Positions 2,430 through 58,034 of a stretch of 58,976 nucleotides of DNA are shown piece by piece. A program made the position numbers and the translations under genes. Origin of the DNA: Cytophagales bacterium (GTDB lineage: Bacteria; Bacteroidota; Bacteroidia; Cytophagales; JAAEPT01); the NCBI GenBank assembly GCA_043770215.1, contig JAYVIQ010000045.1, positions 1 through 58,976 on the forward strand. The letters are read 5' to 3'. Every line of letters begins with the position of its first letter. Positions within the stretch are counted from its first letter, which is position 1. The notes below the pieces were generated by a model. It did not search any database, had not been told where the DNA came from, and was given only the letters and a program-made list of their open reading frames with translations.

Positions 2430-2599
2430 GTGAATATCCGCAATGATACCAGTTTCTGTTATTTTTTTGCGAAAAGGATCTAAGCGGAGCCCTTTTTTGC
2501 TTTTTCAGCAAAAAAAGCAAGAGCAAAGAGCCTGACCCGATAGGGTTTCGCCCAAAATCACTAATCAATTTCACTACTGGTACAATTACGGATATTCAC
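2430..2599 (+). mobile_element. MITE-like element, copy 1 (170 bp)
   Basis: The terminal inverted repeats are GTGAATATCCGCAATGATACC ... GGTACAATTACGGATATTCAC. The flanking 10-mers are AAAAGTTAAT (2420-2429) and AAAAATTAAT (2600-2609), a 9/10 target-site duplication. The body is homologous to the copies at 6118, 6964, 41419 and 56877. Confidence 0.8.
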
Positions 2600-2813
2600 A
2601 AAAATTAATTTTTAAATTTAACGTTCCTATTTTAAACACGCTCAAGACCCCTATTTATTTTCATTCATTATAAGGTATATACATTTCAAATTGTTTTTAT
2701 GCTTTTAAAAATAGAATATTATGCTGCTGTTATAGTGTTATTATCCTTTTTTCAAAAAACCTTTTTTTTTATTAAAAGTGATTTCCAAGCATTTTTTTTT
2801 ATCTTCGTAGCCA

Positions 2814-3353
2814 ATGGAAAAAATTAGATCTACTACAGTTTTGGCAGTAAAACATAATGGTAAGGTTACTATTGGTGCAGACGGTCAAGCAACAATGGGC
2901 AATACTGTTGCTAAAAACAATGTAAAAAAAATTAGAAAGCTAAACGATGGTAAGATTGTTTGCGGTTTTGCAGGGTCTACCGCAGATGCTTTTACGCTTA
3001 TAGAGCGTTTTCAAGAAAAATTGAGCAAGCATGGCAACAATATGAAGCGGGCTGCCATAGAACTTGCAAAGGATTGGAGGACAGACCGTTATTTAAGGAA
3101 ACTAGAGGCCATGATGATTGCTGCTAATGCAGAAGAAATCTTGATTATTTCTGGAACAGGTGATGTTTTAGAGCCTGATGATGATATTGCTTCTATAGGT
3201 TCTGGTAGTAATTATGCTCTATCAGCTGCAAAAGCACTTAAGAGACATGCAACTGAATTATCTTCGGAAGAAATTGTAAAAGAAAGTCTTACAATTGCAG
3301 CAGATATTTGTATTTATACAAACCATAATTTTGTAATAGAGACCATTGATTAG
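2814..3353 (+). CDS. hslV: ATP-dependent protease subunit HslV (CodW-like)
   Basis: [38 protein letters not shown]...[16 protein letters not shown]...[18 protein letters not shown]...[15 protein letters not shown]...ICIYTN is collinear with E. coli HslV and B. subtilis CodW along its whole length. Confidence 0.9.
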
Positions 3354-3585
3354 GTTCCTATAGAGTTTCTTTACAGAAAAAAGACTTTTTTAGTTTCTTT
3401 CTAATAAACTCTTCTTACTGTTTTTAGCTAAGAAGAGTACATTTGGTTATCAAGTATTTAAAAAAAACACTATTCCAAATCAAGAGTTTACACGTGTTTG
3501 AATTTGAACACAGAAAAATGTTAGATTTGAGTAGTTTTAGTTTTATTTGATAGATGAATATTTATCCGTTAATAAAGTTCTAAAA

Positions 3586-4140
3586 CTATTTCCATTTTAT
3601 ATTACAACCTAAACTTGGTTTTTGATATTCAGATATCTTATTTCTTTGTAATAAATTATCAATAGCGTTTTTTATATCCATTCCCGTTACTGGTATCCCA
3701 TTTCCTGGTCTAGATTCGTCAAACCTACCTCGGTAGACTAATTTTTTATCAGAATCAAATAAATAAAAATCCGGTGTGCAGGCAGCATCTAATTTTCTTG
3801 CAAAAGATTGGTCTTGATCATACAGGTACGGAAAATCTAAATTCAACTCACCAAAAAGCAACTTCATGTTCTCTGGTGAATCCTCTGGATAATTAGATAC
3901 ATCATTTGCACTTACAGCTACAAACTTTAAAACTGTGTTTTTATACAATTCATAAAGTTCCTTTATTCCTTGGTGTAAATGAATAACAAAAGGGCAATGA
4001 TTGCAAATAAACATCACAAGTATTGGGTCATTTTGAGCAATATTGTGTATGCTTTCTTTACCTTCAGAAATTGTATTGAATAAATTGGCATCAGGTAAAT
4101 CAGTACCAATGGGTATCATATTAGAAGGAATGCGTGCCAT
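3586..4140 (-). CDS. Thioredoxin-fold (redoxin/AhpC-TSA-like) protein
   Basis: It has a CNHCPFV CxxC motif followed by FVAVSANDVSNYPEDSPENM...FPYLYDQDQ...ACTPDFYLFD...LVYRGRFDESRPG. This pattern is typical of the roughly 185-aa thioredoxin family proteins. Confidence 0.75.
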   Translation of the reverse strand: MARIPSNMIPIGTDLPDANLFNTISEGKESIHNIAQNDPILVMFICNHCPFVIHLHQGIKELYELYKNTVLKFVAVSANDVSNYPEDSPENMKLLFGELNLDFPYLYDQDQSFARKLDAACTPDFYLFDSDKKLVYRGRFDESRPGNGIPVTGMDIKNAIDNLLQRNKISEYQKPSLGCNIKWK

Positions 4141-4390
4141 AGTAATTTTTTTGTTAAAAATAATTCATATTTAGTTAACTTAATACCAAAATGTTATTTA
4201 TTGGGATCATTATTTTTTATTACAAATAGCAGTAAATTTGATTTGAAATGTTTTATTAAACGTAAAGTAGTATAAAAAAGTATACTTTAGTTTATCCTAA
4301 AATAGATTATACGAAAAGTCTGAGTGATATTTATCACAAGAATTTTGTATTAAATATGCAATATTTGATTCCACAGATTTAATAGTATGT

Positions 4391-6121
4391 ATGAAATTTG
4401 AAAAGTATTTTCCAATAATAGAATGGCTGCCAAGCTATAAAAAAGAAAATCTATCTAAGGATATTTATGCAGGTTTAACAGTGGGTATAATCCTAATTCC
4501 ACAAGGGATGGCATACGCCATGATAGCCGGTTTGCCTCCAGTTTTTGGGTTGTATGCAGCTTTAATTCCCCAAATTGTATATTCTATTTTTGGTACATCC
4601 AAACATATTTCTGTTGGTCCTGTAGCTATGGATTCTATGTTGGTTGCCTCTGGGGTTGGGGCTATTGCAGCAGCTGGATCTGGTCATTTTATAGAATTAG
4701 CAATTGTATTGGCTTTTCTAATTGGTTTTTTTCAGTTTGTTTTTGGTGTGCTACGTTTTGGTTTTTTGGTAAATTTCCTATCTAAACCCGTTGTTTCGGG
4801 TTTTACTTCTGCTGCTGCTTTGGTCATAGGATTAAATCAATTATCAGCAATTCTAGGGATGCCTATTTATGAGAAAAAAGCAATTTATATAGCAATAGAA
4901 GTTTTAAAAAACTTAAAATTTGTAAATTTTTGGACTGTAGGAATTTCTGCTTTTACATTGCTTTTTTTAGTGGTGATTAAAAAAAAGTCTGCTACTTTTC
5001 CAAGTGCACTTTTTGCAGTAATAATTGGTACTTTAATTGTATATTTTGGAAAACTACAGTTTAAAAAAGTAGAAATAATTGGCTTTATACCCAAAGGATT
5101 GCCAGGTTTTAGTTTTCCCAATTTAGATACTCCTTTTTTGTACGATTTATTGCCAATAGCTTTTACAATAGCTTTAATAGCATATATAGAAGCTATTTCT
5201 GTGGCAAAAAGTTTGCAAAATAAACACAGAAACGAATACAAAATAGACAATAATCAAGAAATGATAGGTTTGGGATTGTCTAACCTAATAGGTTCGTTTT
5301 TTTTAGCCTATCCTACAACTGGAGGATTTAGCAGAAGCGCTGTAAATGAACAAATGGGGGCAGTTAGTGCAATTTCTTCCTGGGTGAGTGCACTATTGGT
5401 AGGGATAACCCTTCTTTTTCTTACGCCTTTGTTTTATTATTTGCCCTTAGCTGTTTTAGGTGTGATCATTATGATTGCAGTTTTTGGGTTAATGGATTTT
5501 AGTTACCCTAACTATTTATTTAAAAACAGCATGCAGGAGTTTGTCATGCTTTGTGCTACTTTCTGCATTACCTTAAGTGTAGGAATAAAAGAAGGGCTTA
5601 TGGTTGGGGTGTTTATTTCTATAGTGGCACTTGTATATAGAACAAGTAAACCTCATATTGCCATTTTAGGGAAATTACCTTTTCTAGATGAATACAGAAA
5701 CATAGAAAGGTATAATGAAGTTGAAATTAGAAAAGATGCACTAATTTTACGGCAAGACGCTCAATTGTATTTTGCAAATGCTAATTATTTTGCTGAAAAA
5801 GTAAAAGAAGAGGTTCATAAAAAAGGGCGTGATTTGAGGGTTGTAATCATACACTGTTCTAGCATATCTAGTGTAGATACAACAGCAATACAAGAATTAG
5901 TAACCTTAATTGATGGGTTAAATACAGAAGGGGTGAGCGTTTATTTTACAGGGGTTGTAGGTCCAGTTAGAGACTTTTTTAAAAAAACTGGTTTTACTGA
6001 ACAAGTAGGAGTAAATAACTTTTTTATAGACATTGCAAGTGCTGTAAACTATTTAGAAAATGGTGCTAACACTAAAACCAAACAAATGCAGAAGAAAACA
6101 TTGCAAAATAATGTACTGTGA
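4391..6121 (+). CDS. SulP-family anion transporter with C-terminal STAS domain
   Basis: The N-terminus IIEWLPSYKKENLSKDIYAGLTVGIILIPQGMAYAMIAGLPPVFGLYA is the SulP signature region. It has multiple transmembrane segments and a C-terminal STAS-like block (ALILRQDAQLYFANANYF...VVIIHCSSISSVDTTAIQEL). The TGA stop (6119-6121) lies inside MITE copy 2. Confidence 0.9.
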   Translation: MKFEKYFPIIEWLPSYKKENLSKDIYAGLTVGIILIPQGMAYAMIAGLPPVFGLYAALIPQIVYSIFGTSKHISVGPVAMDSMLVASGVGAIAAAGSGHFIELAIVLAFLIGFFQFVFGVLRFGFLVNFLSKPVVSGFTSAAALVIGLNQLSAILGMPIYEKKAIYIAIEVLKNLKFVNFWTVGISAFTLLFLVVIKKKSATFPSALFAVIIGTLIVYFGKLQFKKVEIIGFIPKGLPGFSFPNLDTPFLYDLLPIAFTIALIAYIEAISVAKSLQNKHRNEYKIDNNQEMIGLGLSNLIGSFFLAYPTTGGFSRSAVNEQMGAVSAISSWVSALLVGITLLFLTPLFYYLPLAVLGVIIMIAVFGLMDFSYPNYLFKNSMQEFVMLCATFCITLSVGIKEGLMVGVFISIVALVYRTSKPHIAILGKLPFLDEYRNIERYNEVEIRKDALILRQDAQLYFANANYFAEKVKEEVHKKGRDLRVVIIHCSSISSVDTTAIQELVTLIDGLNTEGVSVYFTGVVGPVRDFFKKTGFTEQVGVNNFFIDIASAVNYLENGANTKTKQMQKKTLQNNVL

Positions 6122-6792: not shown

Positions 6793-6963
6793 TGCGGAAT
6801 TATAATTGCTTTAGTGCAATATTATTTCTTTTTTAAAAAGACTCCAAATAGTTTGTTTAAAATTTATCCACCAACCAAAAAATGAAATGAAGGTTGAATT
6901 ACTTGTAATTAGAAAAAAAAGTAGGTAATTCATGCTAAATACTTGTTTTTCTAATTGATAATT

Positions 6964-7135
6964 CTGAATATCCGCAATGATACCAGTACCTATTATTTTT
7001 TTGCGAAAAGGATAGTAGTGGAGCTCTTTTTTGGCTCCTTCAGCCAAAAAAAGCGGGAACGAATAGCCTGACCCGATAGGGTTTCGTCCAAAATCACTAA
7101 TCAATTTCACTACTGGTACGATAACGGATATTCAC
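6964..7135 (+). mobile_element. MITE-like element, copy 3 (172 bp)
   Basis: The element runs CTGAATATCCGCAATGATACC ... GGTACGATAACGGATATTCAC. It is flanked by a perfect 10-bp direct repeat ATTGATAATT (6954-6963 and 7136-7145). Confidence 0.85.
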
Positions 7136-7406
7136 ATTGATAATTATGATTCATGTAAAAAATGTCTTTTTTATAAAGTTTGTATTTGATACAATTACAA
7201 ATTATTTGCTAATGTTTTTTATCTTTTTATTAAAATTGAATCAATTGTGGTTGTTGCTCTGCTAAACATAAAGTATATTTACAATAGATGATAGTTTTGA
7301 TTCTTCTTTTTACTTTAAATCTTGAATTTAAATATGTATTCTGTTTTTACACATATTTGATATAGATTCAATTAAAAATAGATGTTTGTTATTGTCTAGT
7401 TTTGAT

Positions 7407-8498
7407 ATGAAAAATACGTATTTACTCTTTTTTCTTTTGATTTGTGTTTCAAGGTTTGAAACCATTGCACAATCTAGTAGATTTAATCAATTGGGTTCTT
7501 CTCCTAGAACCTTAGCTTTAGGGAAAAGCAATCAAAGTACCTATGTACAATCTTTAGATGTGCTTGCAAATCCTGCACTTATTACAAGTCAAAAAACAAA
7601 ATATTCTAGTAGTTACATGCACCATAATGCATTTAAAGGCATTAGCAATGCAAATCTTTTAGCTTTTTTTATAAAACCAGATAGTTCAAAAACTCATTTC
7701 GGATTTTCTCTTAATCAACTTTCTAACAATGGAGTTTTTGATACAAGGGATTTAGCTACCAACAGCTCTACTTATGATTTTTCTAAAGTAAGTGTTTTAA
7801 ATTCAGTTGATTATGGATTAAAATTTATTTTAGGTAAGTCTATCTCTAATAAAATAGCCCTAGGGGTATCTGCAAATCTAGATTTGCTTTCTGTAGCAGA
7901 TTTTTCTAACGCAAGAAGTGTAGGGGCAGACTTAGGTCTTCAATACAAAATAGATAGTTCTTTTTGTGTAGGAGTCATGCTAGAAAATGCTTTGGGGAAA
8001 TATTATTTTTGGAACCAAAGCAGTACAATGCTGCAAAAAAGCTATTTTGCAACAGATAACTATCTGCAGATAAATTCTGTAAGCGTTCAATTGCCTTCTT
8101 TATATGTTGGTGCTTCTAAAAAAGCAACCTATAATGCTTGGTTTAGTAATATTTTTTCTGTTCAAGCAAATTTAAATGGTAATGAAGCATCGTATTCTAT
8201 TTTTGCAAAAGACAAACTCGCTTTTAATTTTGGATTTGGGTATGAAGCATTGCTCAAAAATATAGTTTATGTGCGTGCAGGCTGGTCAGATTTTCAGAAA
8301 ATAAGTTATTCTAAAAGTAGCATTTCTTCACAATTAGGGATTGGAATAGGGCTTAAAATTAATAAAATAATGATAGATTATACAATGGCAAACATCAACA
8401 AATCTTTGGTTTCAGCACAAAAGCAGTTAATTTCAATTCAATTTAACTTTGAGAAATTTAATCAACATAATAGCACTGTTGAGCCTAGTAGGTTCTAG
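7407..8498 (+). CDS. PorV/PorQ-family type IX secretion outer-membrane beta-barrel protein (candidate)
   Basis: I moved the start to ATG 7407 (MKNTYLLFFLLICVSRFETIAQ is a signal peptide). The N-terminal SPRTLALGKSN...LANPALI resembles the PorV/PorQ signature. The Ser/Gly/aromatic-rich alternating pattern fits a beta-barrel. It sits immediately upstream of a PorU-like gene. Confidence 0.55.
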   Translation: MKNTYLLFFLLICVSRFETIAQSSRFNQLGSSPRTLALGKSNQSTYVQSLDVLANPALITSQKTKYSSSYMHHNAFKGISNANLLAFFIKPDSSKTHFGFSLNQLSNNGVFDTRDLATNSSTYDFSKVSVLNSVDYGLKFILGKSISNKIALGVSANLDLLSVADFSNARSVGADLGLQYKIDSSFCVGVMLENALGKYYFWNQSSTMLQKSYFATDNYLQINSVSVQLPSLYVGASKKATYNAWFSNIFSVQANLNGNEASYSIFAKDKLAFNFGFGYEALLKNIVYVRAGWSDFQKISYSKSSISSQLGIGIGLKINKIMIDYTMANINKSLVSAQKQLISIQFNFEKFNQHNSTVEPSRF

Positions 8499-11400
8499 TG
8501 TTTTTTCACAAATTGGCAATGAGTGGATAAATCCATCCAACCAGTATTTAAAAATCTCTGTTTCCCAAGATGGGTTTTATCGGGTTTTCCCTTCTGATTT
8601 TTCAAATTCTGGCTTTGATCTTACCCAAATTGACCCTAGAAGTTTTCAGCTTTTAAGAAGAGGCAAAGATTGTTCTATAAGAGTGACTGGAGATCAGGAT
8701 GCAACATTTAATGGCACAGACTATGTAGAATTTTATGGTTCAAAAAACAATGGAGAAGATGAAAAAGAATTGTTTTTAGAGAATGCTCAGCTGAATTCTT
8801 ATTACAGTATGTACACAGATACAGCAGCATATTTTTTGACATGGGCTGGGGTTTCTGGTGCTAGAATAAATTCTATATCTACCCAAAATCAGGTATCTAC
8901 ATCTAATACTTTAGAGGTAAAAAAAAGAAATGTTTACACAGATTATTATGCCATAGGCAATGAAAGATCTAATGAAGTTTATTATTCTGAAGGAGATTTT
9001 GGAGAAGGTTTTGTTTCTGCTGGAATAAGAAATAACACTTCTAAGGATTTTTCCATGAATTTACAAGATAAATTACCAAATGGAGACCCTTCCAAATTAA
9101 GTATTTTACTTGTTGGAGAATATTCTAACTTTAGAACTGTAAATATTGCAATTACTAGTGGTGCAAAGTCTCTATTTTTTACAACTCCACAATTTTCATC
9201 CTTTGAAGATTTATTGTATGAAGTTAATTTACCAAATGATTTTCTTTCTGAAAATCTTGTTGTAACTCTTAGTCCTATTTCAGATATAAACATTACTGAT
9301 TTTATATCTCTAGCCTATATAGAACTTACTTATAATATTACCACAGACTTAAGTCCAATAACAAATAATTTTGTTTTCAAAGCGGATAAAAAATCAAGAC
9401 TATCCCTTTTGTTGCCAAACATAAATAGTACTTTTTACACCTTTAACAAAGAAACCGATTTAGATGAAATTTCTACTCCAAACAATTGGAGTAATGATGA
9501 AGATTTTGACCAATACTTTATATTCAGATACAATAAAAATGACTTTTTACGCCCTGCAAAACTTCAAAGAGCTGTTTTTTCAGACCAGCTTACCCCAGTA
9601 AATTATGTGTTGATTTCACATAAAAAATTATGGTCTGGAGCTAGTGCGTATAAACAGTTCAAAGAATCTGATTTAGGCCAAGAAAGAATAGTAGGATTGT
9701 ATGACATAGAAGAATTGTACAATACGTATTCTTATGGTGATAAAAACCCTCTGGCAATTAAAAGATTGTCCAAAAAACAACTAACTCTAGGGAATCCAAA
9801 ATCTTTAATGATTTTAGGCAAAGGACTAACCCCTGGGTTTCAATCAGGAAATACATACTACAGAAAAGTAAATTATTCGCCATTACTAATCTCAGATTTT
9901 GATTTTGTACCAACATACGGTATGCCTGGGTCAGATGTTTGTTTTACACAGGGTCTACTGCCAAACCCATATCAGCAAGCCATACCTACAGGCAGGTTAT
10001 CTGTATCATCTAATGAGTCTATTTTGACTTATATAGAAAAGCTAAAAGAACATGCTTTGCTAACTTACAAAGATACCTGGACTAAAAACTTTTTGCATAT
10101 AAGTGGTGGTAAAAATGTTTTTGAAGTAAATACATTTTTTGAGAATATGAATGCTCTGAAAGAAAAAATAAAAGGGCCACTTGTAGGGGCTAATACTGAA
10201 GTTTTTGCTAAAAAAACCAATTTACCTATTGAGCTATACAACATTAGCGAGCAAGTAAATAAAGGGGTTTCTATGATTACTTATTTGGGGCACAGTGCAC
10301 CTAATACAATAGAAATAGATATTGGAGAAGCATCTGACCCTACCAATGGCTATAGAAATAAAGGTAAGTATCCAGTTTTGTTTATCAATGGATGTAATTC
10401 TTTAGATATTTTTAACTCCTATACAAGATCAGAAAATTGGGTTTTAGCCCCCAATAGAGGTGCTATTGCTGCTTTTGGGCATTCAAGATTTGGTTATCCT
10501 AATTCTTTGTATAGGTACACAGAATTGTTTTATGAAGTAGCATTTACTGATTTAGATTTTTGGGGTGCCACACTTGGAGAGATTCAAAATGAAACCATAA
10601 AAAGATATTCTATAGATGATCCAAGCAATCCTATAAACTATACTCAAATACAGCAATGGACGCTTATGGGAGATCCAGACATTCGTTTTGTTGCCCCTAA
10701 AAAAACAGATTTTAGTTTAGATTCGCCCATATCTATTTTGTCCAAAAACAAAAATGAACGTTTGACAGTGAGTTCAGACTCTGCTAAAATTAGTTTTGTT
10801 ATTGCAAATAAAGGAATCGTAAATACAAAACCACTACAAGTTTGTATTACTCGGTATTATGATAATTTGTCTAAATCTGTACAGTATGGGCCATTTAAAG
10901 TAGAAAATGTAGGTTCTTACACTCCAGTAGAGTTCACCTTTTTTAATGGACTTCCAAAATCTCAAGGAAAAAATTTGTTTGAAGTCTTTTTGGATTGTAA
11001 TTCTAGCTTTGATGAATTAAATGAACAAAATAACATTTCAACACTAAAATTTGAGATGCCAAGTAAGGGAGTAAATTTGCTTTATCCTTACCCTTATGCT
11101 ATTGTTGGAGATTCTAAAATAGACTTTTCAATAGAATCTCAAGACAGAAGTACTTTAAATGAAGAGTATTTATTTGAGCTATCTAAAGAGGCTAGCTTTA
11201 CTTCTGTTTTTTTAAAGCAAAATGTAATTGCAGACAATGTGGCTATGTATAAAAACATAGATTTAGGTCCTATTGAAGACAGTACAACGTTTTATTGGAG
11301 AGCAAGACAAAAAAATGTGGCAATAGGAGAGGACACCATTTGGTCATCTAGATCATTTACATACATAAAAAACAAAACTGGCTGGGGACAATTTGAATAT

Positions 11401-13329
11401 GATCAATTTAAAAACAATGAGCTAATTAGAATAAATGATACAGGAACAAAATTAGAATATGACAGTATTCAAACAAAGCTAAACTTTAGCACGGTAGGCG
11501 CAAATTTCACAGGAGATTTTATATACAACACAAGTTTAGCAATAAATGACAGAACTGTTGTAGAATCTTTATGGCATCCCGGGTGCACTGTACCTGGTTT
11601 TGTTTTGTTGCCTTTAGATGGAGCTAGTTTACTTTCTTACAGAGGAAAATCAGCAAGTGGATATTCATCTTGCGGTTTAGATCCCAAGACTACAGCTCAT
11701 TTTGTTGCAGATAATGCACAGCATATGAGCAATATGCAGTCTTATCTAGAGAGTATTCCAGTTGGAGACTACTTAATTTTATTATCTACAAGCAACAATT
11801 TAATAGAAAATGTACCTGTAAATGTCTTAGATAAATTACATGAGTTTGGTTGTTTTACATTAGAGACTCTTAAAAACGGAACCCCTTACCTATTTGTTGG
11901 GAAAAAAGGAAGTGCTTTACCTATGTTTGAATCTTTTGATTTGGATAAATCTAAAAAAATAGAGCAAACGTATGTTATAAAAGATTTTGCAAGTTCTGGT
12001 GAAATAAAAGCAAAAGAAATTTCTGTTGCTACCTCTTGGGATGCGTTTTCATGGTCTTTTTTAGGTGTTAATACTGAAAAATTTTCTACTGATTTGTTTT
12101 CAGATACAAAAAACGTGTATGCAAGCAATGCATTTAAGAACTCAGTACCATCAGGGGATATCATTGATTTAAACAAAGAGACCTCTCTAAATTTATCCGC
12201 AGTTTTTACTGATAAGTCTCTAAAAACACTTAGCGAATTAGATCATTGGGCTTTGTTTTACACCATCTCACCAGAAGGAGTAGTTCTGCCAGCTGCTACA
12301 TCAGGTACAAATAGAATTAAGTATAATCAAGGAGATGCCATTGTTGTAAAAGCAGCCTTTTTAAATGTTTCTACCGTAGATTTTGATACACTACAAGTAG
12401 GTGTTAAGGTAAAAGATGCTGTTGGAAATATTTTGATAGACAAACAAATTAAAACAAGCCCCCTAAAAGCTAAAGACACGTTGTTTTTCGATTATAGTTT
12501 TGCAAACAAAAGCTTGGTTGGAAATGTAATTATTGAGTTTAATTTTAATCAAAGTCAGCTTTTAGAGCAGTATTTAGGGAATAATAACTACACTCAAATG
12601 ATTGCAATTGCAAAGGATGAAGTAGCTCCACTTACATATCTGAATTTGAATGGTGTAGTTCCAATAAAGGATGCATTAAGTACTAACAATCCAATTATTC
12701 AAATATTTATTTATGATGACAACAAAAACTTTCCCAAAAATGATACCTTAGGTATAGAAATGTATTTGTCTGGTCCCTGTGAAGATTTTAATAATTGCCT
12801 GTTAAAGCGAGTTTATTTTTCTCAAAAAGGATTGGTTTGGTCAAGAAACAAAGATTTCTTAGAAATTGACCTTCCTTTTTATGCATTAGAGCAGGGTAAG
12901 TACGAATTTAAAGTCTTTGGAGCAGATGCATACGGAAACATAAATGAAAAAGCAACAAGCATTACTTTTGAGGTCCAAGAAACTACTTCATTATCTGCTT
13001 TTTTGCCTTACCCATCTCCTTTTTCATCTCAAATGCGGTTTGCATATCAAATGAAAGGAAGCAAACAACCCCAAAAAATGAATGTTCAGATTGTAAATAC
13101 CAATGGAAATTTGGTGTGTGAACTTACAGAGAAAGAGCTTGGACCACTAACGCCTGGTTCTAATCTTACTTCTTGGTCTTGGGATGGCACAGATAGGTTT
13201 GGAAATCAACTGCCTAATGGAATTTATCTATATAGATGTACTATATTAGATAATGAAATTGTAGAAATGAAAACAGAAGCAGATCGTTTGTTTAAAGACG
13301 GTTGGGGCAGTATAATGATAGCTAGATAG
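8449..13329 (+). CDS. porU: PorU-like C25 (gingipain-family) cysteine peptidase with a type IX secretion C-terminal sorting-type domain
   Basis: The TTG start gives a clean signal peptide, (M)RNLINIIALLSLVGSSVFSQ. A candidate His/Cys dyad, YLGHSAPN ... LFINGCNS, has 34-residue spacing, similar to gingipain R. The C-terminus PYPSPFSSQMRFAYQM...VQIVNTNGNLVCEL...WSWDGTDRFGNQLPNGIYLYRC matches the T9SS CTD / FlgD-Ig-like pattern. Confidence 0.7.
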   Translation: MRNLINIIALLSLVGSSVFSQIGNEWINPSNQYLKISVSQDGFYRVFPSDFSNSGFDLTQIDPRSFQLLRRGKDCSIRVTGDQDATFNGTDYVEFYGSKNNGEDEKELFLENAQLNSYYSMYTDTAAYFLTWAGVSGARINSISTQNQVSTSNTLEVKKRNVYTDYYAIGNERSNEVYYSEGDFGEGFVSAGIRNNTSKDFSMNLQDKLPNGDPSKLSILLVGEYSNFRTVNIAITSGAKSLFFTTPQFSSFEDLLYEVNLPNDFLSENLVVTLSPISDINITDFISLAYIELTYNITTDLSPITNNFVFKADKKSRLSLLLPNINSTFYTFNKETDLDEISTPNNWSNDEDFDQYFIFRYNKNDFLRPAKLQRAVFSDQLTPVNYVLISHKKLWSGASAYKQFKESDLGQERIVGLYDIEELYNTYSYGDKNPLAIKRLSKKQLTLGNPKSLMILGKGLTPGFQSGNTYYRKVNYSPLLISDFDFVPTYGMPGSDVCFTQGLLPNPYQQAIPTGRLSVSSNESILTYIEKLKEHALLTYKDTWTKNFLHISGGKNVFEVNTFFENMNALKEKIKGPLVGANTEVFAKKTNLPIELYNISEQVNKGVSMITYLGHSAPNTIEIDIGEASDPTNGYRNKGKYPVLFINGCNSLDIFNSYTRSENWVLAPNRGAIAAFGHSRFGYPNSLYRYTELFYEVAFTDLDFWGATLGEIQNETIKRYSIDDPSNPINYTQIQQWTLMGDPDIRFVAPKKTDFSLDSPISILSKNKNERLTVSSDSAKISFVIANKGIVNTKPLQVCITRYYDNLSKSVQYGPFKVENVGSYTPVEFTFFNGLPKSQGKNLFEVFLDCNSSFDELNEQNNISTLKFEMPSKGVNLLYPYPYAIVGDSKIDFSIESQDRSTLNEEYLFELSKEASFTSVFLKQNVIADNVAMYKNIDLGPIEDSTTFYWRARQKNVAIGEDTIWSSRSFTYIKNKTGWGQFEYDQFKNNELIRINDTGTKLEYDSIQTKLNFSTVGANFTGDFIYNTSLAINDRTVVESLWHPGCTVPGFVLLPLDGASLLSYRGKSASGYSSCGLDPKTTAHFVADNAQHMSNMQSYLESIPVGDYLILLSTSNNLIENVPVNVLDKLHEFGCFTLETLKNGTPYLFVGKKGSALPMFESFDLDKSKKIEQTYVIKDFASSGEIKAKEISVATSWDAFSWSFLGVNTEKFSTDLFSDTKNVYASNAFKNSVPSGDIIDLNKETSLNLSAVFTDKSLKTLSELDHWALFYTISPEGVVLPAATSGTNRIKYNQGDAIVVKAAFLNVSTVDFDTLQVGVKVKDAVGNILIDKQIKTSPLKAKDTLFFDYSFANKSLVGNVIIEFNFNQSQLLEQYLGNNNYTQMIAIAKDEVAPLTYLNLNGVVPIKDALSTNNPIIQIFIYDDNKNFPKNDTLGIEMYLSGPCEDFNNCLLKRVYFSQKGLVWSRNKDFLEIDLPFYALEQGKYEFKVFGADAYGNINEKATSITFEVQETTSLSAFLPYPSPFSSQMRFAYQMKGSKQPQKMNVQIVNTNGNLVCELTEKELGPLTPGSNLTSWSWDGTDRFGNQLPNGIYLYRCTILDNEIVEMKTEADRLFKDGWGSIMIAR

Positions 13330-50894: not shown

Positions 50895-50911
50895 TTTTTT
50901 TTTTTTTTTTT
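50895..50911. repeat. T17 homopolymer in the promoter region of the CDC-like operon (a T9 tract lies at 50869-50877)
   Basis: I counted this directly: tgtaTTTTTT TTTTTTTTTT Tag. Confidence 0.9.
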
Positions 50912-50913
50912 AG

Positions 50914-50921
50914 TAAATTTG
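50914..50921 (+). promoter_or_regulatory. Candidate Bacteroidota -7 promoter box TAAATTTG (TAnnTTTG consensus)
   Basis: It matches TAnnTTTG exactly and ends 24 nt before ATG 50946. A possible -33 TTG lies at 50888-50890, which puts the T17 tract inside the spacer. Confidence 0.45.
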
Positions 50922-50945: not shown

Positions 50946-52691
50946 ATGAATAAAAATTTTAGAAAAATTTCAGCTTATGGATTAAGCGCATTATTTGTGT
51001 CTTTACTTGTAATTACAGCATGTAAAAAGAAAACAAAGGACCCAGAACCAGGTAATACACCTCCGGATAATAGTACTGGGCTAAATGAGTTTTTGACTGG
51101 CTTAGTCCCAATATCTACCACTGTACCAATAGATTCACCTACTCTAAATGGTGCACCTTTATCTTCTTGGGACGAGCAGACAGGAAATTATTGTACAACA
51201 AAAAAGTATAAGTTAGGTCCTGTATATAACGAAGGATTTATTTTAACGCCAAATAATGATGTTATTTATCCAGGTGCTATACTAGACGGAAACTCTATTT
51301 ATGATGGTGGGTATAGATTGTTGTCTTTACCAAGGTCTGGTGGTACAATATCTACAGACCATATAGGGGCTGTAAATGTGTCTGACAATGTAACTGAGGT
51401 AAAAAAGTCTACTATCCAGCAAGGTGTGGCTAATATTCTAAACCGGGTAGTATCTGGGAGTGCAGGAGCACAAACTAATTTCGAAATTATAGATGTTGTT
51501 AGTGAAAAACAATTGGATGTTGCATTAGGTTTTTCTCTTGGTATTGCAGAAAAAGCTAAGATAAAAGCGGGTCTCAATTTTTCTAAAGCAGAAAAAAAAT
51601 CAAGGCTTTTGGTGAAATTCCAACAAGTTTATTATACCGTAACTTTTGATGCCAAAGGAAGACCAAGCGATTATTTTCAGCCAACAGTAAATGCTACAGA
51701 TGTTTATAATACATTAAATGGCACAAAAGTATCTCCTGTATATGTGAGCAATGTAAAATATGGTAGAATTGCTTATTATTCTATTTCTAGCGAGTTGTCT
51801 CAGTCTGAACTTAGAGCTAGCTTAAACGTACAGTTAAACAAAGTAAAGTTAAAAGCCGAAGTTGATGCCACTATTACTACTAAATTAGACAATGCCAAAA
51901 CAGAGATTTCTGGTACTATTATAGGTGGCTCAGGATCTGCTGCAGTAGGTTCTATATTGGGCTTAACTCAGTTTTATGATTACATAACACAAGGTGGAGA
52001 GTATACTGCTGCTTCTCCAGGTTTGCCTATTGCCTACACACTGCGTAGATTATCAGACAATGGAGTTTTTGCTGTTCAAAAAACTACTGAATACACCGTA
52101 AGTGAGTGTAAAGATATAGTAGGGAGTTTAAATATAAGTGCAATGAGCCATTATTTTGGAGGTGATGAGGACGAAGTAAGAGGGTCTATCACTATGCAAA
52201 TTGGTTATGATGATGGATCTTTTTCTGGTGGTACAACTACCTTATGGAATTCAACAAATAGATTGTTTTTACCTCAGAATAGTACGGAAGTATCTCTTAC
52301 AAATAACCCCATAATCCCTATTAAATACAATCCAGAAAAGTTTAGTACTGCATTTATACTTATAAATGTAGATTTGTATAATTACGCAGATTGGCAAGAT
52401 CAGGGTGTAGATGCTGTAGATGTAAGTGCAGAAGCAAGAAAAGTAGCAACCTATAAAATTTACCTTAGATCTATTGCAAATACAGAATCACTTACAAACC
52501 CTTGGAGTAGCCCTGCAAACGGAACATTTAGCTTAAAAATAGATTTGCCAGAGGCAGCTACGTATTCTAACCACTGCACAGATAGAAGCAGTACTAAAGC
52601 ATGTAAAAGCTGGGCAAACAAATATTATTATAGACAAGCCTCTGTTGTAGATGCTAAATTTACAATGAACGTACAAAACCCTAAATTTTAA
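50946..52691 (+). CDS. CDC-like (thiol-activated cytolysin family D1-D3) pore-forming lipoprotein with a non-canonical C-terminal domain
   Basis: The lipobox is LVITAC (Cys26). Residues ~85-388 are collinear with perfringolysin O D1-D3: YPGAIL vs [30 protein letters not shown] vs [41 protein letters not shown] vs PLMVSNVAYGRTIYVKL; TIIGGSG vs [22 protein letters not shown] vs PAYPISYTSVFLKDN. No ECTGLAWEWWR-like undecapeptide is present, and residues ~392-581 form an unrelated domain. Confidence 0.8.
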   Translation: [581 protein letters not shown]

Positions 52692-52696
52692 TAAAT

Positions 52697-53401
52697 ATGA
52701 AAAAGAAAGTTTTAATACTTGGTACTTTAGCTTTTACCCTTGTATTTGCTTGCAAACCAGATGATCCTAAACCAGAAGACGAGAAAGTGGAAATTCAAAC
52801 TACACCAGTAAAAAATTATGGCATCATACCTGAAAATAGTGTGAGTTTAGTTTCCTTATCTCACTATAAAGGTAATGTCGAAGACAATATTAAGGGTTTT
52901 ATCACTATGCAAATTGGTTATGATGATGATGTATTTCTTGCTGGATCAAATACATTATGGAACGCTACCCAAAATTTATATTTACCTCATAAAGGAACAG
53001 AAGTAGGATTTACAAATAGTCCATTAATTTCTATATTTTATGATAAAGCAAAGTTTAATAAAGCATTTATACTAGTAACTGTAAATATATATAACTCTAA
53101 TGATTGGCAAGACCAAGGGGTAGATGATGTAGATGTAAGTGCAGAATCAAGAAAAGTAGCAACCTATAAAATTTACCTTAGATCTATTGCAAATACAGAA
53201 TCACTTACCAACCCTTGGAGTAGCCCTGCAAACGGAACATTTAGCTTAAAAATAGATTTGCCAGAGGCAGCTACGTATTCCAATCATTGCACAGACAGAA
53301 ATAAATTTTCTGGTGCATGTAAAAGCTGGGCAAACAAATATTATATTAGACAAGCCTCTACTATAGAAGCTAAATTTGCAATGAACGTACAACGACCTTA
53401 A
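52697..53401 (+). CDS. Lipoprotein made of only the C-terminal domain of the neighbouring CDC-like protein
   Basis: The lipobox is LVFAC, followed by an acidic/Pro linker ([11 protein letters not shown]). Residues ~48-234 align end to end with residues ~395-579 of the upstream protein. The last third or so is nearly identical: [56 protein letters not shown]...[10 protein letters not shown].RQAS. The gap to the upstream gene is 5 nt. Confidence 0.8.
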   Translation: [234 protein letters not shown]

Positions 53402-53413
53402 ATTTTAATAGAT

Positions 53414-54064
53414 ATGAAAAAGAAAATTATATTTCTAGGCACTTTGGCTTTTTTGCTTGCTTTCTCTTGCAAAAAAGATGAGCCTAAACCAGAGGAGAAA
53501 AAAGTGGAAACTCCGCCAGTAAAAAAAGATACCATTATACCCGTAAAATATATACAAGGTATAAGGTTGTATAATCAAGGTAATTCTGCAAGTAGCACTA
53601 CTAATTTTAGATTTTATGATATTACTACTGGCACATATTCTAATGATGTTACTAGCAATATAGATTTAGCTTATGTATATAAAAAATCTTCTACTTCTTT
53701 GCATATACTTGGTAGCTCAAAGTCTAGTTCAGTCAGAGGTTATTTTTTGGGTGTTGGTTCGTCAACAAATCAATCTCAAACAGATTTTTACAAAGTATCT
53801 TATAGTAACGTAGCAATATTTGATACCATTAAAGACTCTAAATCAGTTTCGAAACTTTTTAATAGCTATACACAATTGTCTGAATTAGATGGTGAGATAG
53901 GTAGTGATGGATTTGGCTGGGAAAACGAGCAAATACTCGCTTTTAGACTATCAAACAATGGAAAGCGTGGTTTTATAAAACTAACCTCAGACCCAACTGC
54001 ATTTCTTGAAGGAAGCGTTTTGGTAGGTGGTAGAATGGTTCTAGATATTAAAATGGAGCCTTGA
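53414..54064 (+). CDS. Lipoprotein sharing the signal and linker of the previous gene but carrying a different, unknown domain
   Basis: MKKKIIFLGTLAFLLAFSCKKDEPKPEEKKVETPPVKK parallels [39 protein letters not shown]. The rest (…NFRFYDITTGTY…GWENEQILAFRLSNNGKRGFIKL…) looks beta-rich, possibly HmuY-like, but that call is weak. The upstream gap is 12 nt. Confidence 0.7.
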   Translation: MKKKIIFLGTLAFLLAFSCKKDEPKPEEKKVETPPVKKDTIIPVKYIQGIRLYNQGNSASSTTNFRFYDITTGTYSNDVTSNIDLAYVYKKSSTSLHILGSSKSSSVRGYFLGVGSSTNQSQTDFYKVSYSNVAIFDTIKDSKSVSKLFNSYTQLSELDGEIGSDGFGWENEQILAFRLSNNGKRGFIKLTSDPTAFLEGSVLVGGRMVLDIKMEP

Positions 54065-54081
54065 TACTAGCATAGTTTCTT

Positions 54082-54121
54082 AAAAAAAGCCAGTCAAATA
54101 GTATATAGACTGGCTTTTTTT
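54082..54121. terminator. Bidirectional intrinsic terminator between the CDC-like operon and the Omp85 gene
   Basis: The structure is A7-GCCAGTC-aaatagtatata-GACTGGC-T7, a perfect stem flanked by A and T runs. It lies 18 nt after stop 54064 and 14 nt from the stop of the minus-strand gene. Confidence 0.7.
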
Positions 54122-54134
54122 ATGGGGCTAGAAA

Positions 54135-57153: not shown

Positions 57154-57597
57154 TTATTTACATGGTAATGCTTTTTTGTAATCTATGTCAGTAAAAGTAT
57201 AAGTAAATTTATAATTTCTATCACCTATTTTTTCACTTTTGTAATTCTCAATTCCAGCTATGCCTTCCTTTGAAACTAGCAGGGTATCGCACATTTTTTT
57301 TCCATAAATAATTATTTGACCACCAGCGTAAGGTGCGACATAACTTTTTTCTGTTACTTCTTTAGACCCATCGCCCATTTGTTCGATTGTATAAGTATCT
57401 TTAGAATTAACAGTAAATATATAGGGTCCATTTTTAATCTCTATTAAAGAATCAGTATTATTAACATACACAAAAGTACCTTTTACTAAGTAATCTTTCT
57501 CTTCTTTACAACTGAAAATAGCATATATTGCTATTGCAAAAAGACTAGTTCCAAGCGTTAAACAACGCATCCAAGTTGTTTTCTGTTCGATTGTCAT
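57154..57597 (-). CDS. Small lipoprotein, paralog A (passenger gene)
   Basis: The lipobox is AIFSC. The mature part is about 115 aa and beta-rich, ending NYKFTYTFTDIDYKKALPCK. It is paralogous to the next ORF. The start may be Met10 (MRCLTLG...). Confidence 0.6.
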   Translation of the reverse strand: MTIEQKTTWMRCLTLGTSLFAIAIYAIFSCKEEKDYLVKGTFVYVNNTDSLIEIKNGPYIFTVNSKDTYTIEQMGDGSKEVTEKSYVAPYAGGQIIIYGKKMCDTLLVSKEGIAGIENYKSEKIGDRNYKFTYTFTDIDYKKALPCK

Positions 57598-57620: not shown

Positions 57621-58034
57621 TTATTTACACGGTAATGCTTTTTTGTAATCTATGTCTGTAAAAGTGTATGCAAATTTATAATGCCTATTGCCTATTTTTT
57701 CGTTAATATAATTAGATATACCAATAATACCCTCTCCTGTACCTATCTTATTAGTTGTATCTAGTGTATCACATTTTGTACTAGAATATATAATAAGAGC
57801 TGAGGTCATTGGAGGCACGTAATTTTTTTCTGATACATCTTTAGGTCCTTCGCCACCTTGTTCAATGATGTGAGACTGACTTGGATTTATAGTAAAATCG
57901 TATACACCGCTTTTAACCTCAATCAATGAATCAGTATTATTTGTATAAACATAAGTTCCTTTAACAGCATATTCTATATCTTTTTTACAACTAGCTGTGA
58001 TTAACAGCGCAATTAGACTAATCCCAAGCTTAGA
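57621..58034 (-). pseudogene. Small lipoprotein, paralog B, lacking a canonical start codon
   Basis: The track ORF (57621-57926) starts at a TTG in mid-domain. The frame stays open upstream as SKLGISLIALLITASCKKDIEYAVKGTYVYTNNTDS, which is a signal peptide plus lipobox aligned with paralog A. It is closed by TAG at 58035-58037, with no ATG, GTG or TTG before the lipobox. Confidence 0.5.

Follow-up and report, generated by a model that had tools for sequence, protein, structure and literature searches.

Cholesterol-dependent cytolysin-like proteins (CDCLs) form an established family (PMC7527733), defined by the motif (F/Y)(F/Y)...YGR (Evans et al. 2020, PMC7527733). Those of Bacteroides fragilis and Elizabethkingia work as two-component pore-formers that are activated by a protease, exported as lipoproteins and able to kill related bacteria (PMC11169675; PMC11952106). 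CDCL-L binds the target via its C-terminal domain and recruits CDCL-S (PMC11169675). B. fragilis is protected by BcdI, a surface lipoprotein of 30 kDa whose gene belongs to the CDCL operon (Abrahamsen et al., Nat Commun 2024, PMC11169675). Most CDCL-positive Bacteroidota genomes (821 of 1578) have just one CDCL gene, and this class was left unstudied (PMC11169675). In this study, we describe such a single-CDCL locus, made of three lipoprotein genes, in a stretch of 58,976 nucleotides from a Cytophagales bacterium (assembly GCA_043770215.1, contig JAYVIQ010000045.1, positions 1 to 58,976), the whole of which is hereafter named the window. The CDCL encoded by gene 1 is itself ordinary. New are its partner lipoprotein, encoded by gene 3, and a lipoprotein consisting of domain 4 (D4) only, encoded by gene 2, which was born by duplication and kept by selection. 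The three genes are:

50946-52691, + strand: gene 1, CDCL lipoprotein, 581-aa open reading frame (ORF)
52697-53401, + strand: gene 2, chimeric lipoprotein, 234-aa ORF
53414-54064, + strand: gene 3, CDCL-partner lipoprotein, 216-aa ORF

Genes 1 and 2 are separated by 5 nt (TAAAT) and genes 2 and 3 by 12 nt; a first-pass annotation, made by a model from the sequence alone, had given the same ORFs, strands and gaps.

To place gene 1 among the cholesterol-dependent cytolysins (CDCs), we ran the profile search that the first-pass annotation had proposed for its claim of a CDC D1-D3 core. Residues 92-384 matched Pfam PF01289 (Thiol_cytolysin) with an E-value of 7.4e-37 and a score of 127.4 bits, against a gathering cutoff of 25, and the match spans profile positions 51-346 of 353. 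Sequence matches in the Protein Data Bank (PDB) comprise intermedilysin (the best, E 6e-31), pneumolysin, LLO, PFO, SLO and the Elizabethkingia anophelis proteins (EaCDCLs; 8g32/8g33/6xd4), and every one of them ends where domain 3 ends. The parts of gene 1, all on the + strand, are:

aa 1 to ~84: signal peptide with lipobox Cys26, then a linker or possible propeptide
aa 85-388 (nt 51198-52109): D1-D3 core
aa 394-581 (nt 52125-52688): non-canonical C-terminal domain

The CDCL signature is made up of a tyrosine pair (aa 229-230) within QQVYYTV at aa 226-232, one residue before the position first assigned to it (227-233), and of KYGR at aa 271-274, whose YGR (aa 272-274, nt 51759-51767) had been placed correctly. 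Both YY and YGR align to the motifs of intermedilysin, and Y229, Y230, Y272, G273 and R274 are invariant in a clade alignment of 10 sequences. Two amphipathic stretches (aa 190-212 and 302-328) show the alternating polarity that had been pointed out at first pass, and they align to stretches of intermedilysin that we take, from CDC structures, to be the transmembrane hairpins TMH1 and TMH2, respectively. As the annotation had also claimed, the canonical D4 is absent: gene 1 had no match to PF17440, and neither an undecapeptide-like nor a W.WW motif was found in it. The more distant homologues P0039, P0042 and P0044 do have PF17440. Since it has no canonical D4, gene 1 is assigned to the CDCLs, not to the classical CDCs. 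It is the only ORF with a CDC core in the 59-kb window, genes 2 and 3 having no similarity to PF01289, and it thus belongs to the single-CDCL class rather than to a two-component L/S pair. About 20 full-length homologues of gene 1 were found at 41-54% identity; those that could be placed come from Cytophagales, Sporocytophaga and Paludibacteraceae metagenome-assembled genomes (MAGs).

All three proteins carry a lipobox-like sequence, ITAC in gene 1, VFAC in gene 2 and AFSC in gene 3, with the cysteine at positions 26, 19 and 19, respectively; these lipoboxes were assigned by motif. The residues from the cysteine onwards are CKKKTKD in gene 1, CKPDD in gene 2 and CKKDE in gene 3, with D/E at +3 to +5 in the last two, in agreement with what had been read from the sequence before. 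The consensus for surface-lipoprotein export in Bacteroidota reportedly has acidic residues soon after the cysteine (Lauber 2016; Valguarnera 2018). Two further cysteines of gene 1, Cys83 and Cys388 (nt 51192-51194 and 52107-52109), sit at either end of the D1-D3 core and do not vary in the 10-sequence clade alignment. A disulfide between them could tie the N-terminal segment to the D3/D4 junction; we know of no equivalent pair in canonical CDCs.

The C-terminal domain of gene 1 recurs in gene 2 (gene 1 aa 394-579 against gene 2 aa 48-234: 70% identity, E 6e-95), and gene 2 is, as first described, a lipoprotein signal plus this domain alone. The two cysteines noticed in the replacement domain (C544 and C553 in gene 1) are invariant across the clade. 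No sequence match to the domain was found in Pfam or the PDB. Its AlphaFold2 (AF2) model, made on gene 2, is a beta-sandwich with a mean pLDDT of 84.9, and the top Foldseek matches of this model are all C2 domains (PI3K, PLC-beta, SHIP2, DOCK180), with E-values of at least 5.9e-3, TM-scores of at most 0.35 and a root-mean-square deviation (rmsd) above 11. The canonical CDC D4 and the EaCDCL-L D4 were considered and rejected as relatives, with no sequence match and neither of them in the top 50 fold matches. Clade-wide identity is 24-41% in the C-terminal domain against 41-54% over the full length, the latter being an average that includes the domain. On its model, the C-terminal domain is a clade-specific, disulfide-containing beta-sandwich in place of the cholesterol-binding domain 4. 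According to the literature, EaCDCL-L and BSAP-1 both bind to the membrane or to a receptor through their C-terminal domain.

We then evaluated the genomic contexts of gene 1 homologues, drawn from three collections, and classed every ORF in them by its match to one of three profiles, built on the CDC core, on the C-terminal domain and on gene 3. Dereplication left 12 distinct loci with 13 modules (the window, L001, the L002 group, L003/7, L019/20, L013, L014, L012, L005 with two modules, L008/15, L023 and L024). A gene 3 homologue is located directly 3' of the CDCL gene in 12/12 loci, the 11 outside the window at 36-45% identity, and the gaps between the two genes measure 2-81 nt. Reverse look-ups gave the same picture, with a CDCL directly upstream of all four of the gene 3 homologues that had been found independently. 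The flanking genes vary by locus, and the pair alone is constant. The linkage is kept with a 377-aa CDCL that has no C-terminal domain (L005) and with a Paludibacteraceae CDCL that has a different one (L008); being independent of the C-terminal domain, gene 3 tracks the pore-forming core and not the targeting domain. Modules carry one to three gene 3 copies in tandem, and the Sporocytophaga trio (L003) is 67-71% identical. Gene 3 homologues were not found at Leptospira-type CDCLs (L009, L010) or at classic L/S pairs (L016, L018). The family comprises 18 clusters at 90% identity, whose members are lipoproteins of ~220 aa, unnamed or annotated as "hypothetical protein", and each cluster examined adjoins a CDCL.

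Gene 3 had no sequence match in Pfam, NCBIfam or the PDB. Its AF2 model (mean pLDDT 79.8, pTM 0.74) gave a borderline fold match to the DUF4466 lipoprotein 4ei0 (Foldseek E 1.2e-3, probability 1.00, TM 0.46/0.34, rmsd 5.4). Sequence comparison lent no support to an assignment to DUF4466: none of 17 family members matched the Pfam model at E up to 10, and no profile match to 4ei0 was obtained; no DUF4466 literature was found. Gene 3 as a diverged old copy of the C-terminal domain was rejected, at an hhalign probability of 0.35%. For a comparison with BcdI, a BcdI sequence was recovered by scanning IMG/VR with the published cloning primer, and the order bcdI, CDCL-S, CDCL-L at L018 validates it. 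Homology of gene 3 to BcdI (BF1274) was rejected, as hhalign aligned 25 signal-peptide columns only (probability 53%). BcdI itself had no Pfam or PDB match.

Several rearrangements were observed at these and related loci. Three gene 3 copies lie at 7810-10017 of L003, and two at 3149-4588 of the related strain L019. At 3428-5666 of L023, the duplicated unit consists of the 3' end of an unrelated gene for a collagen-like (GTN-repeat) lipoprotein together with gene 3, and its duplication leaves a 65-aa fragment ORF and two near-identical gene 3 copies. L005, a Cytophagales MAG, has two adjacent CDCL-gene 3 modules at 6953-11294: a decayed one, with the CDCL in fragments and gene 3 cut to 141 aa, and an intact one, whose 377-aa CDCL without C-terminal domain resembles CDCL-S yet is paired with gene 3, not with CDCL-L. 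L017 (IMG/VR UViG 3300029877_000118) has, at 2530-4737, a bcdI-type gene and after it an ORF of 267 aa, which occupies the place of the porin that the B. fragilis locus, as published, has 3' of its CDCL genes. No CDCL genes lie in between, in contrast to L018 and to that locus. This contig, putatively viral or mobile, may carry an orphan immunity gene.

The sequence between the start of the gene 1 C-terminal domain and the end of the gene 3 linker falls into two homologous units:

52125-52837, + strand: duplication unit A, with the gene 1 C-terminal domain, stop, 5-nt spacer, gene 2 signal peptide and linker
52838-53554, + strand: duplication unit B, with the gene 2 C-terminal domain, stop, 12-nt spacer, gene 3 signal peptide and linker

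In a DNA alignment, the units are collinear across the domain, stop codon, spacer, next ATG, signal peptide and linker, with offsets of 713 and 717 nt. Such collinear homology through coding and intergenic sequence marks a tandem duplication of ~715 nt, and gene 2 is a chimera produced by this in-frame event. Its aa 1-47 (signal, lipobox Cys19 and linker) belong to the gene-3 lineage and its aa 48-234 are a copy of the CDCL domain; over aa 1-60 of gene 2 and aa 1-57 of gene 3, identity is 53%. One breakpoint lies where the gene 1 C-terminal domain begins and the other where the gene 3 linker ends, so that the gene 3 leader was fused in frame to the toxin domain. The first-pass annotation had described gene 3 as reusing the signal and linker of gene 2. 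That direction has to be reversed: because gene 3 is conserved and gene 2 derived, it is gene 2 that took its leader from the gene-3 lineage. An assembly artefact was rejected as the source of gene 2, as the units are ~24% diverged in nucleotides over the domain (106 mismatches/468 nt) and the junction is a novel in-frame fusion.

No other stand-alone copy of the domain was found in the 11 other loci, whatever the domain type of their CDCL, or when the domain profile was run exhaustively with HMMER against 1.84 billion representative proteins. The scan returned seven clusters, namely five CDCLs (377-595 aa), gene 2 and one 217-aa protein. The 377-aa member (P0027) is an N-terminally truncated CDCL, and the 217-aa protein (P0047), a candidate for a second stand-alone domain, was rejected as a 5'-truncated CDCL on a 1.2-kb contig. 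The first-pass annotation had made its reading depend on linkage of both small genes to CDCL genes in related genomes. For genes like gene 3 this linkage holds in 12/12 loci and in both directions; for genes like gene 2 it fails, with 0/11 other loci. Gene 2 is thus a lineage-specific add-on and not a defining component, and the duplication in the window is a shifted-register case of the tandem duplication that recurs at CDCL loci.

Comparison of the two domain copies bears on how long gene 2 has been kept. Over the first 100 codons, which form the unconverted half of the domain, genes 1 and 2 differ by a synonymous divergence (dS) of 0.97 and a nonsynonymous divergence (dN) of 0.32, giving a dN/dS ratio (omega) of 0.33 that is a mean over both duplicate lineages. 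Divergence is strong in the N-terminal half of the domain, where amino acid identity is 40-60%, and the borrowed signal and linker of gene 2 have an omega of 0.38. Derived substitutions are split 14:14 between the gene 1 domain and gene 2 when eight outgroup domains are used, and 15:15 with the closest three. All residues that are invariant in the alignment of the domain-only family, both cysteines included, are kept in gene 2. When neutral drift was simulated for the part of dS that falls to gene 2, only 0.3-3% of the copies stayed free of stops, a conservative estimate of survival since stop codons and not indels were scored. These values indicate that the duplicate is old (dS ~1) and that purifying selection has maintained it, with substitutions accruing as fast as in the domain of the toxin. 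The other half of the domain contains a pair of tracts that stand apart:

52435-52567, + strand: gene-conversion tract, gene 1 copy (aa 497-541 region)
53148-53280, + strand: gene-conversion tract, gene 2 copy, pairing with 52435-52567

These 133 nt differ by one mismatch. Where both copies encode the same amino acid, they use the same codon in 92% of cases within the tract vs 61% outside (Fisher p 4e-4), and a perfect run as long as the observed one occurred in 0/20000 permutations. The near-identity of the tract, together with its excess of codon identity, shows that genes 1 and 2 have swapped sequence by gene conversion after diverging.

The explanation that we favour, at an even chance, sees the locus as an antibacterial pore-toxin module with a single CDCL gene, from a sparsely sampled clade of Cytophagales-type Bacteroidota. 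Its parts would most likely be a toxin, a lipoprotein that is a candidate for immunity and a decoy, specific to the lineage, that blocks the receptor. By analogy with the characterised CDCLs and BSAPs, gene 1 would be exported as a lipoprotein, bind a surface receptor on related bacteria via its C-terminal domain, form pores and kill. Gene 3 would be the cognate immunity or regulatory lipoprotein that acts on the D1-D3 core and is BcdI- or CD59-like in function, CD59 being a protein that acts on the complement membrane attack complex (MAC). Since gene 3 accompanies CDCLs whatever their C-terminal domain, D1-D3 is where it should act, as BcdI does on liposomes, where it inhibits sub-stoichiometrically. 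We consider the immunity role of gene 3 evenly balanced; its tandem, diverging copies and its absence away from CDCLs suit immunity better than a receptor allele or a chaperone. Gene 2 would be a second receptor-binding domain (RBD), anchored by lipid and unable to form pores, that occupies the receptor on the producer surface, on sister cells or on vesicles, and this occupancy would add a second, competitive layer of self-protection. That gene 2 competes with the toxin for the same receptor is proposed tentatively, at somewhat less than an even chance. A laboratory precedent is the isolated domain 4 of intermedilysin, which binds CD59 at near-native affinity, while a D4-derived peptide inhibits lysis competitively (PMC2697320). 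A decoy or self-protection role had been offered at first pass as the alternative to nucleation of the toxin; it fits the evidence better than nucleation does and stays a proposal. More doubtful, and on balance unlikely, is the fuller version in which gene 2 is an RBD-only immunity factor kept matched to the toxin by gene conversion, in a concerted evolution of weapon and decoy, and gene 3 a second CDCL immunity family, unrelated to BcdI and acting on D1-D3. If true, such two-layer self-protection would be undescribed for any MACPF/CDC toxin.

Several points weigh against this proposal. Gene 3 is without detectable homology to BcdI, its fold match is borderline (4ei0, E 1e-3, TM 0.46), and the linkage is explained just as well by an accessory role, be it in export, tethering or activation. 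Gene 2 has turned up in a single genome, which leaves comparative genomics silent on its role; its omega is averaged over both lineages, and conversion from the selected gene 1 could have repaired part of it. The best structural matches of the C-terminal domain (C2) are weak, a hint and not a classification. The KKKT of gene 1 lacks the acidic export signature of genes 2 and 3, so the relative placement of the proteins is uncertain. Finally, the comparison loci are all metagenome or MAG contigs and amount to a small sample (12 loci).

Other explanations were weighed for each of the two small genes. Strict linkage alone cannot separate immunity from an accessory function, and gene 3 could instead be a tether, export chaperone or activator, or a toxin-resistant receptor allele of the kind known for BSAP toxins, whose genes adjoin resistant receptor orthologues (B1R-R, B1R-S; PMC12853789). 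The lack of BcdI homology would agree with either, and we regard a role of gene 3 other than immunity as unlikely, but a serious contender. The receptor-allele model predicts gene 3 homologues without a CDCL in sensitive strains, whereas only 18 clusters were found and each one examined lies beside a CDCL. Against the accessory model, a tandem array of several diverged copies is seen more typically with immunity genes than with chaperones, and the acidic motif after the cysteine suggests exposure at the surface, where BcdI also acts. As for gene 2, it might be a functionless, tolerated by-product of recurrent tandem duplication that is kept intact only by conversion repair from gene 1. Duplications are indeed frequent at these loci (three gene 3 copies in L003, two in L019, two plus a gene fragment in L023), the conversion tract between genes 1 and 2 is demonstrable, and gene 2 occurs in a single genome. 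However, the N-terminal 100 codons that escaped conversion (dS 0.97) show an omega of 0.33 and no stops or frameshifts, where neutral survival would be 0.3-3%; derived changes are even (14:14), without the excess expected of a decaying copy; and the signal, lipobox and linker of gene 2 are conserved. A by-product thus seems rather improbable.

A more remote explanation is that gene 2 serves as a recombination cassette, a spare receptor-binding domain that is copied into gene 1 to shift specificity in the manner of orphan toxin-tip modules. It would account for the conversion that has happened between the copies, for the strong divergence of the N-terminal half of the domain (40-60% identity) and for the faster evolution of the C-terminal domain than of the core across the clade. 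A silent copy, however, needs no start codon, signal peptide or lipobox, all of which are intact and constrained in gene 2, conversion has homogenised the most conserved part of the domain and not the variable part, and there is one cassette only; we give this explanation a low probability. The first-pass annotation had favoured an integrated three-component pore system, in which gene 2 marks the target membrane or nucleates gene 1 and gene 3 is structural. The genes are apparently co-transcribed and all encode lipoproteins, and multi-component CDCLs exist in which CDCL-L recruits CDCL-S (PMC11169675). Gene 2 is nevertheless a lineage-specific duplication product, missing from 11/11 other loci of the clade that presumably work without it. 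The known two-component CDCLs pair two D1-D3 proteins, while the window has one CDC core; oligomer contacts of CDCs and CDCLs lie in the beta-sheet of the D1-D3 core, not in D4 (PMC11952106); and a D4 on its own should be a competitor of the toxin rather than its recruiter. The three-component system is not supported, and we consider it very unlikely.

Analysis of the noncoding sequence around genes 1-3 identified the following elements:

50895-50911, + strand: T17 homopolymer, directly 5' of the candidate -7 element and 3 nt away from it
50914-50921, + strand: candidate Bacteroidota-type -7 motif TAAATTTG (consensus TAnnTTTG), 24 nt 5' of the gene 1 ATG
54081-54122, no strand assigned: intrinsic terminator hairpin, 15-bp stem between A7 and T7

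In a motif search, this -7 motif was the sole TAnnTTTG of the intergenic region 5' of gene 1; the motif occurs at 1.4/kb in the window, and one match alone is weak evidence. A sigma-70 promoter scan gave chance-level matches only, its consensus being ill-suited to Bacteroidota. The hairpin, located between gene 3 and a convergent Omp85-family gene, folds with a dG of -21.2 kcal/mol (z -5.08), and 0/200 shuffled sequences were equally stable. Its loop of 12 nt caused it to be overlooked by the consensus terminator scan and it was recovered by folding; with its A7 and T7 flanks, it is potentially bidirectional. Bracketed by one candidate promoter and one terminator, genes 1-3 look like one transcription unit, as had been supposed at first pass.

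A second TAnnTTTG match (TAAATTTG) lies at 53371-53378, within the 3' end of gene 2 and 43 nt before the gene 3 ATG. The paralogous position before gene 2 (52654-52661) reads TAAATTTA. Gene 3 may keep an internal promoter that is lacking before gene 2, and the motif is possibly there by chance at its frequency of 1.4/kb. The T17 run is the sole homopolymer of at least 10 nt in the window. Other simple repeats were seen at the same promoter position in two homologous loci: L002 has (CAACAGAG)x6 ~60 nt 5' of its CDCL gene, which starts at 6001, and L014 has (ATTTT)x~6 about 30-60 nt 5' of its own, which starts at 5001; such repeats are not present in the promoter regions of five other CDCL loci. 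This suggests slipped-strand phase variation of CDCL operons, with T17 as a possible site.

The flanks of the locus consist of housekeeping genes, encoding an M23 peptidase, CysK, a CysE-like acetyltransferase, Omp85 and tyrosyl-tRNA synthetase (TyrRS), and the GC content of the window is 32%. A C25 peptidase of 1626 aa (8449-13329) matches the NCBIfam model PorU2, a putative type IX secretion system (T9SS) sortase, with 714 bits against a cutoff of 450, and this match marks the window as Bacteroidota chromosome. An anti-phage defence system was considered and gave no PADLOC match. At 57154-57597 and 57621-57926, on the - strand, two adjacent paralogous ORFs of 147 and 101 aa have near-identical C-termini (...YKFTYTFTDIDYKKALPCK and ...YKFAYTFTDIDYKKALPCK), with no Pfam match for either.

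CDCLs were recognised between 2020 and 2025 as a widespread antibacterial weapon of Bacteroidota, and work so far has dealt with the two-component systems of gut Bacteroidales and Elizabethkingia. The window and its 11 relatives represent a clade whose CDCLs are encoded by single genes and bring in a new family of C-terminal domains. In the literature searched on CDCLs and BSAPs, we found no description of this domain family, of the conserved partner family or of a D4-only derivative, and the earlier statement that no D4-only partner has been characterised agrees with that search. To our knowledge, BcdI is the sole known CDCL immunity protein. The obvious place to look for a second protein of this kind, for immunity or regulation and without homology to BcdI, is the gene 3 family, which also offers a direct handle on the control of single-component CDCLs. 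Gene 2 documents the dated birth of a gene by in-frame tandem duplication across a gene boundary, followed by retention through selection. If its role as a decoy is true, gene 2 pinpoints the receptor-binding domain and is a ready-made reagent for finding the receptor of a CDCL; we know of no CDCL whose receptor has been reported.

The locus shares with the CDCL/BcdI system of B. fragilis (BfCDCL) a CDC-like pore-former with a predicted signal peptidase II-type (SpII) lipoprotein signal, a non-cholesterol C-terminal binding domain, a Bacteroidota host, a small lipoprotein in the same operon and, by inference, a role in bacterial antagonism. Like BcdI, gene 3 is a predicted surface lipoprotein in a CDCL operon, a likeness of context only: gene 3 lies downstream, is ~216 aa long and has no homology to BcdI, which has ~279 aa. 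The B. fragilis system is a CDCL-S/CDCL-L pair located on a mobile element, whereas the locus in the window has one CDCL gene among housekeeping genes, a C-terminal domain of a different, unannotated family and an additional D4-only gene. EaCDCL-L/-S (6xd4, 8g33, 8g32; PMC7527733, PMC11952106) resemble gene 1 in the D1-D3 core (E 2e-16 to 7e-15), in the lipoprotein signal and in a D4 that is a separate, flexibly linked binding module. The similarity ends with D3 (gene 1 aa 95-377), and the EaCDCL operon has no co-transcribed non-CDCL genes, unlike the locus described here. The split is also reversed, as the partner in E. anophelis is without D4 and the one in the window is D4 only. With the classical CDCs (intermedilysin, pneumolysin, perfringolysin O), gene 1 shares D1-D3, the YY...YGR signature and the amphipathic stretches at the TMH regions; it differs from them in having no PF17440 domain or undecapeptide, in being a Gram-negative lipoprotein and in its target, presumed to be bacterial and not eukaryotic. 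BSAP toxins of Bacteroidales (PMC12853789) are likewise surface-lipoprotein pore-formers of the same superfamily, with specificity in a variable C-terminal domain and self-protection encoded beside the toxin gene, which in the window is inferred. Their core is MACPF and that of gene 1 is CDC; they protect by replacement of the receptor allele and not by an inhibitor or decoy, and gene 3 homologues were not found away from CDCL genes. Gene 2, finally, is the natural counterpart of the D4-only construct of intermedilysin that binds CD59 (PMC2697320), a binding domain without the pore core. That construct is laboratory-made and has an unrelated D4 fold, whereas gene 2 is encoded in a genome, predicted to be lipid-anchored and maintained by selection.

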